Assembly (NCBI GenBank): GCA_043228905.1
Contig: JBHGNT010000013.1
Span: 12,586,001 to 12,650,000, forward strand
Direction of reading: 5' to 3'
Length of the DNA stretch: 64,000 nt
Origin: Azolla caroliniana
Lineage: Eukaryota > Plantae > Polypodiophyta
Of this stretch, positions 40,167-54,350 are shown piece by piece; the first letter of the stretch is position 1; each line of letters starts with the position of its first letter. A model generated the notes under the pieces. The model was not told where the DNA came from. It did no database searches and worked only from the letters and a program-made list of their open reading frames with translations. The translations under genes were made by a program, and so were the position numbers.

Positions 40167-43100
40167 TGTCATGATATGGCAAGACTCGAACCCATGACCT
40201 TACGTTACATGGGTTGAGCTCTTGACCATTAGACTATTTGTTGTAATACAAAAAATATTATTTTCATTTAAGTTTTACTATAGAAAATTGATGTATATTC
40301 CAGATTTCTCTGGAACATTCTAGAAACTTTAGGAATACTCCTGAGAACACTATAAAAGGAGGCACAAGGCATTATTTTGAACCAAATCGGTTTAACGCTA
40401 GTCTTAAGCCTCGTAGCTACTATTGTATATTCTCTTAACATAATATATATCTTTTGTTATCATCATTCTCTCTCTCTCTCTCACTCACTCTTTCCTTCTC
40501 TCGAGAATTCTACACCTCCCTTAGTACTAATCCTCATCTTTTAGTACTAATTCATTCTCTGTCTTAGTATTGTTCCTAACAGTACTTCTCTGTCTTAATA
40601 CTGCTCCTGATAGTTTGAACTGATTTCGGTCTCCTTCCTTCTCTTCCTTTTTCTTCTTACTTCTCCCTCCCTTCATACTAATCTCTTATTCCTCTTTTCT
40701 CTCATACTATGGCCACTGTTAACGCTCAAGAATATCAATCTGTTTTTTCGGAGTTGCAATGCTTGAAAGAGAAGCTTCTCGCATTGGAACAAGAAAATCA
40801 ACGACTGTTGGGGGAGTTTGAACAAATCTCCTTAGAGAAGCAACATACGCAACAACAACACGGGGAACTAGTGTTACGCGTGCAACAGCTCGAAGCAACC
40901 ATAGTAGCAATGCAACAACAAGGACCCAATATGCAAGGGGTTCATAAAGAACCCAAGATCGGCCTTCCCATGAAATTCAATGGAACGCGATTGCAGTTTA
41001 GAGGATTCCTTAATTAGGTATGATTAGTCATTCAAATGCATCCTTCCCGATATCCCACCGATGCATCACGAGTGGGTTTAGTAGGCACGTTGTTAAGTGG
41101 CTCAGTTTTGGCATGGTTCGCTCCGTTGTTAAAAAAGGAATCTCCTTCACTAAACAATTTGAAGAGTTTTTAAGTGAGTTTAAAGCTTGTTTTGGAGATA
41201 TTGACAACATAAGGACAACAATCAACAAAATCCGACGATTATGTCAAGGTGATCATCCAACCTCCGCATCGTTGCAGATTTCCGCCTACTCGCCTTCGAT
41301 ATCCCTTGGGATGGCCAAGCACTTATGGAGCAATTTTGTTATGGTCTACGTAACAATGTCAAGGATTTACTCTTGACTTTCCTCGAAGAACCAAAGTCAT
41401 TGACAGAAGCAATCAGTCGCACGGTGAGATGCGACAACCGTCTTTTCGAATGACGTTCGGAACGTCACTTCCAGATGCCAAGGGCAAAATAAGAGCCCAC
41501 CGCCGCCTTAGTGGTATCAAAACCTTTTCCAAGGGAGTAATATAATGCGTCTCTAGTGAATACTCCAACTCCGATGGAAATTGACACTACATGTCGTCGC
41601 AAACCATTATCAAAAGAAGAAAAGCAGCGATGTCGAGCAAATCAACTATGTCTTTATTGTGGTGGACCAAGGCATATTGCAGTGAACTGTCCCCATAGGC
41701 CAAGAAGACAGGTGAACCAAATAGTTGCTAGTTCTAATTGTACTAAACCCGAGTCTATTTCAGTACGAATATTTGATAGTCCTAATAGTACCAATAGCCC
41801 AAATCTATCGAACAAATTTGATGTCCTTAGTCAGTTAGAAGAAGAGTTAAACGACTAAGTCCAGCCAAAATAGGAGTCGTTGTCGTGAAGATCCGTCACT
41901 ACGCGCGGATCGTGAGGCAGAACCGCCGGGGTTCTGGACCGGAAGGACTCGAAGTTTGCACAAGATTTAGCGAGAAAGAAATTGAGATAGATTGAAAGAG
42001 AGAGAGAGATTGAGATAAGATAGAACACTTGATTTAGATTGAGAGAGATTAAGATTGAATTCTTGACTTTAGATTTTAAGAACAAGGTATATCATCACAA
42101 GGATAACAAATTTTCTTCTTAATATTAATTTTGATATAAAGTACAAAGCTCTTGATAAGAATTTTATATTACTTTTCCTCCTTTGATCTTTTTCATACCC
42201 TCTTTTATAGATGCCCTCATGCATTTGAGGGTTCAAGACATGCATAAAATGCATGTTTGCCATTTGGCGCTCATGTATTACATGTGGTGCATGATAACCA
42301 CGTCACTCATTTTAGCTCTCATGTATGAGAATTTACATGTAAAGTTACAATGATAAAGATATTATTTCAAGAAAATGTCTTGGCTTAGTGGTTGTCAGAT
42401 GTTGCAGTTACCGTCGGTCGCCGGATGCCGGTTACCGTTCGATCGCCGAATGCCGGATGTCGGTTATCGTTTGGTCACCGGATGCCGGTTACGTTGCCGG
42501 TTCGGTTTTGGTTGGGCAAAACCTTTGCAAGTAGCCAGGCCACACCCATTCATCCAATAGCTTTTTTCAAGTCACCTTGAACTCTCTATGCTCCACACAT
42601 AGACTCAAAGATAATAGCTTTTGCTCTACCTTATATATGGTGAGATCCTTATTTCCTGTCTATGTGGGATATCTCACAGTTTTATTTTTCTCTTCTTCCT
42701 TCTCATACTTCACTCCCACATAACTTGTCACTTAGATGTCCGTTTTTTATGTGGTAAAGTACTAAAACATTAGATTTAATACAACAATCATTCTGGTGGC
42801 CCCATATGCGACAATTTGTCGAAGATTTTGTTCAGACTTGTGATACATGTTGTAGAGCAAAAATGTGAAGGTATCATCCATATGGTTTATTAGAACCATT
42901 ACCAATTGCAAGCCCTGACAATCCATTGCTCTAGATTTCATCATAGATCTTCCGGTCTCTAAGGGATTCGATGTGATCTTAACAGTAGTAGATCGATATA
43001 CGAAAATGGCCCATTTTCTGCGATGTACTAATGAAATCTCCAGTGAGGAAACCCCCGAAACTGTCATGCGTGAAGTATGTCGGCATCATGGCCTTCCCGA

Positions 43101-44476
43101 TAGTATCATTAGCGACCGTGGACCCCAATTCATCTCGAAATTCTGGAAGCACCTCTTTAAAATGCTCAATGTCACTTGTAACCTCTCCTCCGGCTACCAC
43201 CTACAAATAGACAGCCAAGCAGAATGAACAAATCAAACGCTGGAGCAATATCTTTGGTGCTTTCTAAGCTATCATCAAGATGACTAGGTGGATTTTCTCT
43301 AGCTCACCGAATTTGCGTATAATAACTCTGTCCATTCATCGACAAAGGTTACACCATTTTATGCTTATACGGGTTGTCACCCCTAATGGTGTGTTTTTGA
43401 AACCCCAGAGTTGCCCACAAATCCTTGCACAGAGGATCGTTTGGAGCGGTTACGCAAGATACAAGCGGATTTATCTACTCATCTACAACAAGCTCAACAA
43501 ACACACTAGGTTTACGTGGATCGTCATCGGCTTCCATCCAGTTTTAACATTGGAGATCGGGTATTTCTACTTCGACAACACATCAAGACTACTCGCCCAT
43601 GCGAGAAGTTGGATTATCGGCGATTAGGTCCTTTCTGTATTATCGGAAAAATTAATGATGTCGCTTTTCTTCTCGATCTACCTCCACAACTTCGAATACA
43701 TCCGGTGTTTCATAGTTCTCTCCTCGAACCCTATCAAGACAACACCATCCTAGGTCATATTAAACAACCTCCACCCCCGATCGAACTTGAAGATGGACCT
43801 GAGTACGAGGTTGCTTCCATCCTTGATTCCAAAATTGTTCGCAACAAGCTCTACTATTTAGTCAATTAGCTAGGATATAATCCCAACGAGCGTACTTGGG
43901 AACCAATAGAGAATGTGACCAATGTTCGTGCTCTTCTTGAAGACTTCCATCCTCAATATCCAGACAAACTGGGTCCTCAATCCAAAACGACTTGTGACAC
44001 TCATCGTTTTAAAGGGGGGATAATGTCATGATATGGCAAGACTCGAACTCACCTTATGTTACATGGATCGAGCTCTTGACCATTAGACTATTTGTTGTAA
44101 TACAAAGGATATTATTTTCATTTAAGTTTTACTATAGAAAATTGATGTATATTCGAGATTTCTCTGGAACATTCTAGAAACTTCAGGAGTATTCCTGAGA
44201 ACACTATAAAAGGAGGCACAAGGCATTATTTCGAACCAAATCGGTTCAACGTCAATCTTAAGCCTCGTAGCTGCTATTGTATATTCTCTTAACATAATAT
44301 GTATATCTTTTGTTATCATCATTCTCTCTCTCTCTCTCTCTCTCACACTCACTCTTTCCTTCTCTCGAGAGTTCTACACCTCCATTAATACTAATCCTCA
44401 TCTTTTAGTACTAATTCATTCTCTGTCTTAGTATTGTTCCTGACAGTACTTCTCAGTCTTAGTACTGCTCTTGACA
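40167..44476 (+). mobile_element. Chromovirus (Tcn1/sushi-like Ty3/gypsy) element G1; LTRs 40167-40612 and 44024-44476; PR-RT-RH missing
   Basis: TSD GCTGC/GCTGC; PPT aaaggggggataa; gag with CLYCGGPRHIAVNC; integrase ISDRGPQF, GPF, HPVFHSSLL; chromodomain EYEVASILDSK...TWEP. Confidence 0.95.
41881..42760 (-). mobile_element. Truncated foreign LTR (TGTCGTG family) occupying the place of G1 PR-RT-RH
   Basis: Starts TGTCGTGAAG; U5 motif gaaccgccggggttctggaccgg; ggatgccggttac repeats at 42410-42500; right boundary approximate. Confidence 0.65.
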
Positions 44477-44650
44477 GCTGCTCAAACTTTAGGTCTTCAA
44501 TCGCCACGACCCCGAGTAGGAGCCGACGGGTGGTCATCTTGACTAAAGGTAAGAATATCTCCTCATAGTCGACCCCATGTTCTTGTTTGAATCCTTTTGT
44601 GATGAGTCAAGCTTTATATTTGGGCTTCTTTGAGTCAGACACATATTTGT

Positions 44651-54005: not shown

Positions 54006-54054
<49 letters not shown>

Positions 54055-54350
54055 CTCGCTATCTCTCTCCCTCTCTCGAGAGTCTTACACAGTCCCGTCC
54101 TCTTAGTACTAATAGTACTTCCCTTCTCTAGTACTAATTCTCTCTCTGTTTTAGTACTATTCTTGACAGTTCCTGATACACCGTATTAAATTGACCTCGT
54201 GGGCCGGCGGTTGTCTCGGTTTATCTCGTGGGCCGACGGTGTGGGTAATGTTGTTTCCGATTCTGGTGTTGGTTTGTGCTTTGAACCGTCTTCCTCTGGG
54301 TCATCCGGAGTGTTGTGGTTGTTTCGATAGTTTGACTGAACATTATGCTC
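47500..54350 (-). mobile_element. Degenerate gypsy-type gag (host of G3; pieces ~47500-48499 and 54169-54350)
   Basis: Two CCHC knuckles (CTTCLNPGHSTLEC, CMLCHSQSHTVDRC) and an R/D-rich tail. Confidence 0.7.
48500..54168 (+). mobile_element. Full-length but degenerate chromovirus (Tcn1/sushi-like) element G3; LTRs 48500-48965 and 53711-54168
   Basis: TSD GTTCT/GTTCC; gag; protease [35 protein letters not shown]; RNaseH EADTSDFALG, YEIHDKELLAIV; integrase; chromodomain; PPT aagggggggatag. Confidence 0.96.

Follow-up and report, generated by a model that had tools for sequence, protein, structure and literature searches.

The subject of this analysis is a stretch of 64,000 nucleotides from Azolla caroliniana (assembly GCA_043228905.1, contig JBHGNT010000013.1, positions 12,586,001 to 12,650,000), which is called the window as a whole. 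The long terminal repeats (LTRs) of three Ty3/gypsy elements in the window, G1 (40167-44476), G2 (44651-45890) and G3 (48500-54168), begin with a module that reads on the minus strand as the A box and the B box of a tRNA gene. The module is a real and widely conserved feature, which recurs in related elements at the same LTR edge and on the same strand. Judged from its pattern of conservation, it has very probably been kept by selection as a DNA-level type-2 RNA polymerase III (Pol III) promoter, i.e. as a site for TFIIIC and Pol III, after it had been captured once or twice from a tRNA gene or a tRNA-derived short interspersed element (SINE). The boxes are kept, the stems are mostly lost, there is no fixed terminator and there is no tRNA primer, as would be expected if TFIIIC recognizes the module as DNA.

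On the minus strand of each of the six LTR starts the order T8-R9 ... A14-A15-T-G18-G19 ... A44-G-G-T-C48 ... G53-T-T-C-R-A-N-N-C61 was found. Modules were scored at 13 invariant or semi-invariant tRNA positions, a list that we take from textbook knowledge, and a T8-G53 distance of 40-52 was allowed. The 5′ and 3′ LTRs scored 13 and 12 in G1, and 13 throughout in G2 and G3. Among 780 background windows of 150 nt that were tiled over the rest of the 64 kb none scored 13, and three scored 12. An earlier note on this DNA had described the LTR starts as tRNA-like, and its motifs were all located at the positions it had claimed. In the G1 5′ LTR T8 is at 40236, G19 at 40226, G53 at 40191 and C61 at 40183, and the T8-G52 distance is 44 nt, as the note had said. 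In the G2 5′ LTR T8 is at 44742 and G53 at 44693, and the box starts are 48 apart. Both G3 LTRs carry the G1-type module (T8 at 48569 in the 5′ LTR and at 53780 in the 3′ LTR, both 13/13), and the small deletion in the G1 3′ LTR comprises 3 nt. The tRNA-like reading stood for the boxes, with 12-13 of 13 positions, and fell for the cloverleaf. Neither ARAGORN nor Rfam called a tRNA at the window LTRs, where the copies were at background level, so that the window modules have the skeleton of a promoter but are no tRNAs. The fold of the G1 5′ module is a single long hairpin without a cloverleaf. A working tRNA was excluded because the stems are gone, and mis-set LTR borders that would turn the module into a primer-binding site (PBS) were excluded because the target-site duplications (TSDs) and the polypurine tract (PPT) fix the borders. 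The perfect TTGTAATC/GATTACAA hairpin, which had been placed at the anticodon-arm position, does exist in G2. It is private to G2, since the family members at loci L017 and L020 lack it and have a spacing of 45 nt, and an anticodon arm was therefore excluded.

Relatives were retrieved by the integrase C-terminus, i.e. without selecting for the module. Of the 79 loci, 76 came from metagenome contigs, where the best 80 of 508 matches were retained, and 3 from genome contigs. For 69 of the 79 the PPT gave the LTR start; 10 had no call, and two further loci were too short for scoring. At 85% identity they formed 36 families, the three window elements included. A module (at least 12/13, minus strand, at most 150 nt from the LTR start) was present in 20 of the 36 families, so that the conservation of position and orientation, which the earlier note had seen in two LTR families, extends much further. 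L023, L024 and L057 scored 11 and were matched by a profile built from the modules, the module of L044/L051 looks worn, L075 has none, and 11 families show nothing. Controls from the same loci (plus strand, next 150 nt, upstream 150 nt) reached at most 11, with one at 12. The module signal was confirmed by tRNA positions that had not been scored and are nevertheless kept in the 20 module families, namely R9 (20/20), T20 (18/20), G46 (20/20) and T47 (20/20). The unscored AGGT at positions 44-47 was found in 17 of the 20 families, compared with 3 of the 780 best background matches. The T8-G53 spacing was 44 or 45 nt in 17 of 20 (40-52 permitted), while C61 lay anywhere from 12 to 62 nt from the LTR end. 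The boxes are the conserved part of the LTR start: across clades A and B (see below) box positions are 90-100% identical, while adjoining positions are near random.

For an integrase tree (LG+G4) 44 rows were used, after the exclusion of 6 out of 50 that had fewer than 280 filled columns; no reference Tcn1 sequence was among them. The module families fell into two well-supported clades, A (98/97), to which G1, G2 and G3 belong with their families, and B (100/100). The integrase identity between the clades is 44-60%. The tree is compatible with one capture of the module as well as with two. The GC-rich outgroup families, which are probably fungal, and the L061 group had no module, and none was seen by eye in the LTR of SM-Tcn1 of Selaginella. 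In the contigs of public DNA runs the module was present in the bulk of the family copies, and module bins were among the deepest. In run X1 the joints that skip the module had a depth of about 10-50, compared with about 1 million for module bins (contig depth is a rough measure), which argues against a TSD-flanked SINE that is present in a subset of the LTRs. In the G1 LTR, none of at least 33 places that are variable at 1% or more coincided with the 13 scored positions, and none was located in 40167-40198.

Several further observations concern the same set of sequences. The terminal six LTR bases recur inverted within about 40 nt as a small hairpin (e.g. in L038, L054, L034, L043 and G2), in which at least 5 of the 6 bases match in 14 of 20 module families and in 4 of 13 others. 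L033, L047, L048, L049 and L058 form a well-supported group of chromodomain integrases that show no PPT-TG LTR start after the stop codon, and this group may have an unusual end structure. L080, L081 and L082 are genome contigs that are labelled as prokaryotic and contain eukaryotic chromovirus sequence, likely as contamination. In viral contigs there were three unrelated pattern matches and no relatives.

The window has a GC content of 40%, and a polygalacturonase exon in it is closer to a fern protein (66%) than to seed-plant proteins (44-57%), which indicates a land plant of the non-seed type. In each of G1, G2 and G3 a PPT precedes the 3′ LTR and a 5-bp TSD is present (GCTGC, TTTGT and GTTCT/GTTCC, respectively). 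The LTR ends are of the TG..CA type; the 5′ LTR of G1 ends with TGATA and that of G3 with TGAGA. TSDs and ends fix the LTR borders and thereby place the module inside U3. The 5′ and 3′ LTRs differ by 5.2% in G1, 2.1% in G2 and 6.2% in G3. A single minus-strand Copia reverse transcriptase (RT) frame is split by G1 and G2, with 174 bp between them. G1 and G3 are decayed copies and G2 is a rearranged remnant. The description as autonomous chromoviruses holds for the module-bearing relatives, which have open gag and pol genes, and not for G2, which retains only an SH3/chromodomain remnant, a cut 5′ LTR and an inverted U5 end. The G2 5′ LTR (44651-45056) breaks at the self-primer segment, continues with the exact LTR end in inverted orientation and then with integrase sequence, and the TSD is intact; the structure may be a product of aberrant reverse transcription or of autointegration. 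The features of the three elements are:

40167-40612, plus strand: G1 5′ LTR, TSD GCTGC
40183-40236, minus strand: G1 5′ tRNA-type module, A box 40236-40226, AGGTC 40200-40196, B box 40192-40183; 13/13 invariant positions
40313-40325, plus strand: heat-shock-element-like TTCnnGAA units in the G1 U3
40351-40396, plus strand: G1 TATA box (40351) and putative RNA polymerase II (Pol II) start and self-primer (40384-40396)
40613-40626, plus strand: G1 self-priming site following the 5′ LTR, without tRNA PBS; by eye complementary to the segment about 33 nt past the TATA box
43510-44023, plus strand: G1 integrase C-terminus (SH3 and chromodomain) and PPT; stops break the gene
44024-44476, plus strand: G1 3′ LTR
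44040-44090, minus strand: G1 3′ module, 12/13; 3-nt deletion, spacing 42
44651-44942, plus strand: G2 5′ LTR, truncated near R, TSD TTTGT
44685-44742, minus strand: G2 5′ module, 13/13; spacing 49
44942-45056, minus strand: G2 U5 end, inverted copy
45473-45890, plus strand: G2 3′ LTR, TATA box at 45724, long heat-shock-element-like arrays (45635-45698)
45507-45564, minus strand: G2 3′ module, 13/13
48500-48965, plus strand: G3 5′ LTR, TSD GTTCT/GTTCC
48516-48569, minus strand: G3 5′ module, 13/13
48966-48979, plus strand: G3 self-priming site, complements the LTR from position 214 onward; 13-nt match, 1 mismatch
49036-53710, plus strand: G3 gag and pol (RT, RNase H, integrase, chromodomain), with stops and frameshifts
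53711-54168, plus strand: G3 3′ LTR
53727-53780, minus strand: G3 3′ module, 13/13

The module profile matched the G1 5′ module with an E value of 1.9e-12, the profile itself having been made from related modules.

The module loci contain open gag frames of about 300-430 amino acids and pol frames of about 1200 amino acids, e.g. 431 and 1203 codons in L004 and 379 and 1246 codons in L054 (all in collapsed assemblies). The two frames overlap in L004 (G3 family; 181-1473 and 1449-5057) and likewise in L009 (G1 family). Pfam matches are in the order RT, RNase H, integrase, with a C-terminal chromodomain, the aromatic cage of which is represented by EYEV, DW and GY columns in the alignment. A complement of 12-14 nt exists between the bases that follow the LTR and a segment about 32 nt past the TATA box. 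It was found in G3 and 14 loci out of 25 sequences, the rest being 3′ LTRs without internal sequence, outgroups or misses; the scripted search missed the site of G1, a mutated copy, which was called by eye. The partners covary between families. This self-complementary priming makes a tRNA primer unnecessary, and the genomic RNA likely starts at the sense Pol II promoter, without a tRNA. Given a sense TATA promoter and self-priming, the module cannot make the genomic RNA, in contrast to what has been proposed for Cassandra and Helenus. The 5-bp TSD, self-priming, overlapping frames and aromatic-cage chromodomain fit a placement of the elements among Tcn1-like chromoviruses, as these are tabulated by Neumann 2019 (PMC6317226).

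The U3 is organized in the order antisense module, AT-rich stretch, often heat-shock-element-like arrays, and TATA box. The stretch upstream of the module A box is 79% AT, and the module and the TATA start lie back to back, about 140-200 nt apart. Arrays of TTCnnGAA, which we take to be the unit of the heat-shock element (HSE), are strongest in G2 (44803-44880 and 45628-45705) and occur also in the U3 of G1 and G3 and in many module families. Rfam microRNA matches at the G2 arrays were discarded as palindrome artefacts. An oligo-T terminator is not fixed: the first TTTT follows the module anywhere from 1 to more than 400 nt, and it is missing within about 400 nt in 6 of 20 module families and within 600 nt for both G3 LTRs. 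Without a terminator at a set place, a defined RNA product is less likely.

The module of L054 matched the Rfam tRNA model RF00005 at model positions 1-71 with 27.8 bits (E 0.00024 in a search of 121 nt), slightly short of the gathering score, which is 29, and all 7 pairs of its acceptor stem are formed. The score above background that the earlier note had anticipated was thus reached by L054 and not by the window copies. It was the sole match and came from a short search of L054, whereas Rfam searches of 20 whole loci revealed no tRNA at their LTRs. When the profile of 20 modules was compared with 440 kb of loci and the window, true tRNA genes were among the best non-LTR matches, i.e. an Asn gene (E 7e-4) and a Thr gene (E 0.05) in L021 as well as Ser-like copies in the window (E 0.0017 at 59998-60066, and E 0.011). 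A free tRNA/SINE-like copy was detected in L061 at 2662-2719. By these two lines of similarity, the Rfam match of L054 and the recovery of true tRNA genes, a tRNA ancestry of the module is supported. The Asn and Thr genes of L021, the only plant tRNAs that were compared, both gave no clear fit as parent.

The fold of the tRNA has largely been lost. ARAGORN made no call on 72 LTR starts at slightly lowered -ps and three at -ps85, all at the module; at -ps75 it was noisy. In the module families Watson-Crick cells were found at 22/100 in the anticodon stem (slid controls 15-34), 42/140 in the acceptor stem (32-38), 37/80 in the T stem (13-40) and 29/80 in the D stem (14-18). The acceptor stem had 26/105 in clade A, and clade B retains more (acceptor stem 16/35, D stem 10/20). 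The T stem exceeded a permutation of partners (2/5000), but not a one-base slide (37/80 versus 40/80). Cloverleaf stems are thus near the slid controls, with the exception of the acceptor stem in the L054 family. No conserved RNA fold was detected in the module (median z about -0.9), and a conserved hairpin RNA was excluded, because strong folds occurred in just 3 of 20 module families.

Some observations were made on tRNA genes and repeats in the same sequences. In L021 (552-906) two true tRNA genes, Asn-GTT and Thr-AGT, directly adjoin an integrase fragment of a module-bearing element. At 59850-64000 the window contains tandem repeats of about 790-880 bp with five tRNA-Ser-like genes or pseudogenes on the minus strand that were called by ARAGORN, and the region resembles a clustered array of tRNA genes (tDNAs). 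An inverted repeat pair at 28548-29448, with arms of 155 and 121 nt that are about 90% complementary, is possibly a miniature inverted-repeat transposable element or a foldback element.

As to the benefit for the element, it is tempting to speculate that the module is a portable heterochromatin barrier for the element's own Pol II promoter, an idea to which we give slightly less than an even chance. The two boxes, located in the outermost part of U3, likely bind TFIIIC, TFIIIB and Pol III, with TFIIIB placed on the AT-rich stretch. The assembled complex would cover about the first 130 bp of the LTR, hold this region nucleosome-free and stop heterochromatin of the flank from reaching the HSE/TATA promoter. 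Such a barrier would aid an element that may be steered into heterochromatin by its aromatic-cage chromodomain. The 5′ copy alone would matter, and the 3′ copy would be a consequence of LTR duplication. Somewhat more tentatively still, a major branch of heterochromatin-seeking chromoviruses of non-seed plants may consist of self-insulating retrotransposons, which use a captured tRNA promoter as a mobile TFIIIC/Pol III barrier. Each insertion would then carry its own boundary, and the host genome would be seeded with very many TFIIIC sites. The barrier is favoured because the module is located between the flank and the promoter, because G1 and G2 are nested in one Copia RT, as expected of heterochromatin targeting, because this chromodomain type was suggested for RLG1 to direct integration into heterochromatin (PMC7466625), and because fission yeast has a tDNA barrier for which both the A box and Pol III are needed and which is effective in either orientation (PMC2040200).

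Several points weigh against the barrier. The barrier step rests on the analogy with yeast. The spacing of 44-45 nt is tighter than the requirement of TFIIIC, which is looser, and is unexplained. Chromodomain relatives without the module exist (SM-Tcn1, by eye, and 11 families outside the two clades), and within clade B the module has been lost (L075) or worn (L044/L051). Its orientation is fixed, although the yeast barrier is independent of orientation; common descent could explain this. As the families are related, they cannot be counted as independent events. DNA methylation silences those clustered tRNA genes of Arabidopsis that have repressive chromatin (PMC7544208), and thus plant tDNAs need not resist heterochromatin.

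It is rather unlikely that, instead of a barrier, the Pol III transcript itself is functional, be it an antisense RNA from the 3′ LTR over the PPT and the chromodomain (as double-stranded RNA, small interfering RNA, self-restraint or decoy) or a transcript of the 5′ copy into the flank. Both boxes and the AT-rich upstream stretch are retained, and the lack of TTTT in 6 of 20 families and in G3 would make long read-through possible. However, neither the terminator nor the fold is conserved. In addition, over the final 400 nt in front of the LTR, AAAA runs are about as dense in module families (2.25/kb) as in module-less families (2.69/kb), by which selection against antisense terminators was excluded.

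The Pol III complex could also tune the adjacent Pol II promoter directly, without a barrier, either as a brake of the tDNA position-effect type or as an open-chromatin helper of the heat-shock-like arrays; this has a slightly smaller chance than a functional transcript. The back-to-back arrangement of the module and the TATA start and the frequent HSE-like arrays of module families are compatible with it, and inhibition by tDNA position effects in budding yeast is 2- to 60-fold, as cited in PMC2040200. In fission yeast euchromatin, according to the same article, a position effect was looked for and not found. Moreover, HSE-like units are lacking in the module families of L018, L027, L029 and L063.

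Marginally below this stands a role in the genomic RNA, the sense strand of which might pair with the D and T arms of a host tRNA for packaging or strand transfer. The orientation is as required, the PPT is adjacent, and the tight tRNA-length spacing suits pairing in register; a tRNA-Lys3-like sequence in U3-R of HIV-1 has reportedly been proposed to act in a parallel way. But the elements prime themselves, positions 10-13 and 49-52 are free to vary between families, and G46 and T47 (20/20 each) are devoid of the changes that G-U wobble would permit. Positions 47 and 58, which we take to be modified in mature tRNA, are fully kept.

A neutral origin, in which a tRNA or SINE once inserted and its remains were merely copied with the LTR, is improbable for the module. 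The decayed stems, the losses in clade B and the free copy in L061 are in line with a relic, but it is largely refuted by the selective conservation of the boxes: these are nearly identical across clades whose integrases have diverged to 44-60% identity, next to neighbours that are near random, and in G1-like copies the variable places listed spare all 13 scored positions (p about 0.05, calculated by hand). Least probable of all is a role as landing pad or decoy, with TFIIIB/TFIIIC-targeting elements as the visitors, for which the targeting of TFIIIC/IIIB sites by TRE5-A (PMC3159450) and the element fragment beside two tRNA genes in L021 could be quoted, because 0 of 6 window LTRs have an insertion upstream of the A box, the loose ends listed for the G1 LTR (24 out of 235) all look like family variants and not like foreign LTR ends, and being targeted is of no evident benefit to the element.

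The putative Pol III promoter retained at the DNA level, with a possible barrier function, bears on the open question of how chromodomain retrotransposons are transcribed after their insertion into silent chromatin, for which the module, with its two short boxes at a constant site of the LTR, is a precise and mutable candidate. Provided that the boxes are bound, transposon islands would be bordered by numerous TFIIIC sites from an abundant repeat family, and the chromatin domains of these plants could be shaped by them. If RLG1 of P. patens falls into these clades, a model moss could be used for experiments.

Sequences of this kind have parallels of different closeness. Piekna-Przybylska is said to have described in 2010 a tRNA-Lys3-like sequence in U3-R of HIV-1, i.e. 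in the LTR of an autonomous retroelement, which reportedly acts by RNA pairing with the primer tRNA; the elements described here, in contrast, have no tRNA primer. The model for the proposed mode of action is the tDNA-Ala barrier at cen1 of fission yeast, where TFIIIC and Pol III are recruited by the A and B boxes, but this is a real tRNA gene at a fixed chromosomal site and not a worn mobile copy (PMC2040200). The Tcn1 clade shares the 5-bp TSD, self-priming, overlapping gag and pol, the aromatic-cage chromodomain and non-seed plant hosts (Novikova 2010, PMC2864245; Neumann 2019, PMC6317226). A tRNA-like LTR sequence is not described for it in the available portions of these two articles, the main texts of which contain the term "polymerase III" 0 times. 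Unlike the elements analysed here, SM-Tcn1 has, by eye, an LTR without the module (PMC2864245). The bases after its 5′ LTR complement, also by eye, an LTR segment that resembles the self-primer of G2, while PMC2864245 reports no self-priming signal.

The earlier note had proposed Cassandra as the counterpart, and the likeness stands insofar as Cassandra has a Pol III promoter from a small-RNA gene in plant LTRs. Its promoter is, however, derived from 5S RNA, the element is non-autonomous, and transcription runs from the start of the 5′ LTR to the end of the 3′ LTR (as described in PMC10886601). The closest case is Helenus/TRIMp3 (Kojima 2024, PMC10886601), in which the LTR also has a tRNA-derived sequence that encodes no functional tRNA and is conserved mainly at its two promoter boxes, A and B. 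An insertion of a SINE into the LTR was proposed as its origin, and one family is found in the plant Selaginella. Helenus elements are non-coding, 311-1263 bp long and mostly have a tRNA PBS, and their promoter was proposed to make the template RNA. In the same article it was argued that the autonomous partners need Pol II; only terminal-repeat retrotransposons in miniature below 1000 bp were analysed, and "not a few LTRs" in Repbase were said to resemble part of a tRNA, so that module families may be present there unremarked. The module contradicts the published expectation that tRNA-type LTR promoters are template-RNA promoters of tiny non-coding elements. In the full-text literature searched, outside of which were most subscription papers and Repbase, no description of tRNA-type promoter boxes in autonomous plant elements was found. 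Taken together, the tRNA-derived A and B boxes in an LTR match Helenus, while size, coding capacity, primer and promoter direction do not: the elements here encode gag and pol, prime themselves, keep a TATA start, and have minus-strand boxes that point outward. tRNA-derived boxes in LTRs were thus already known from Helenus, and what appears to be new is their presence, in outward orientation, in autonomous, coding and self-priming elements.

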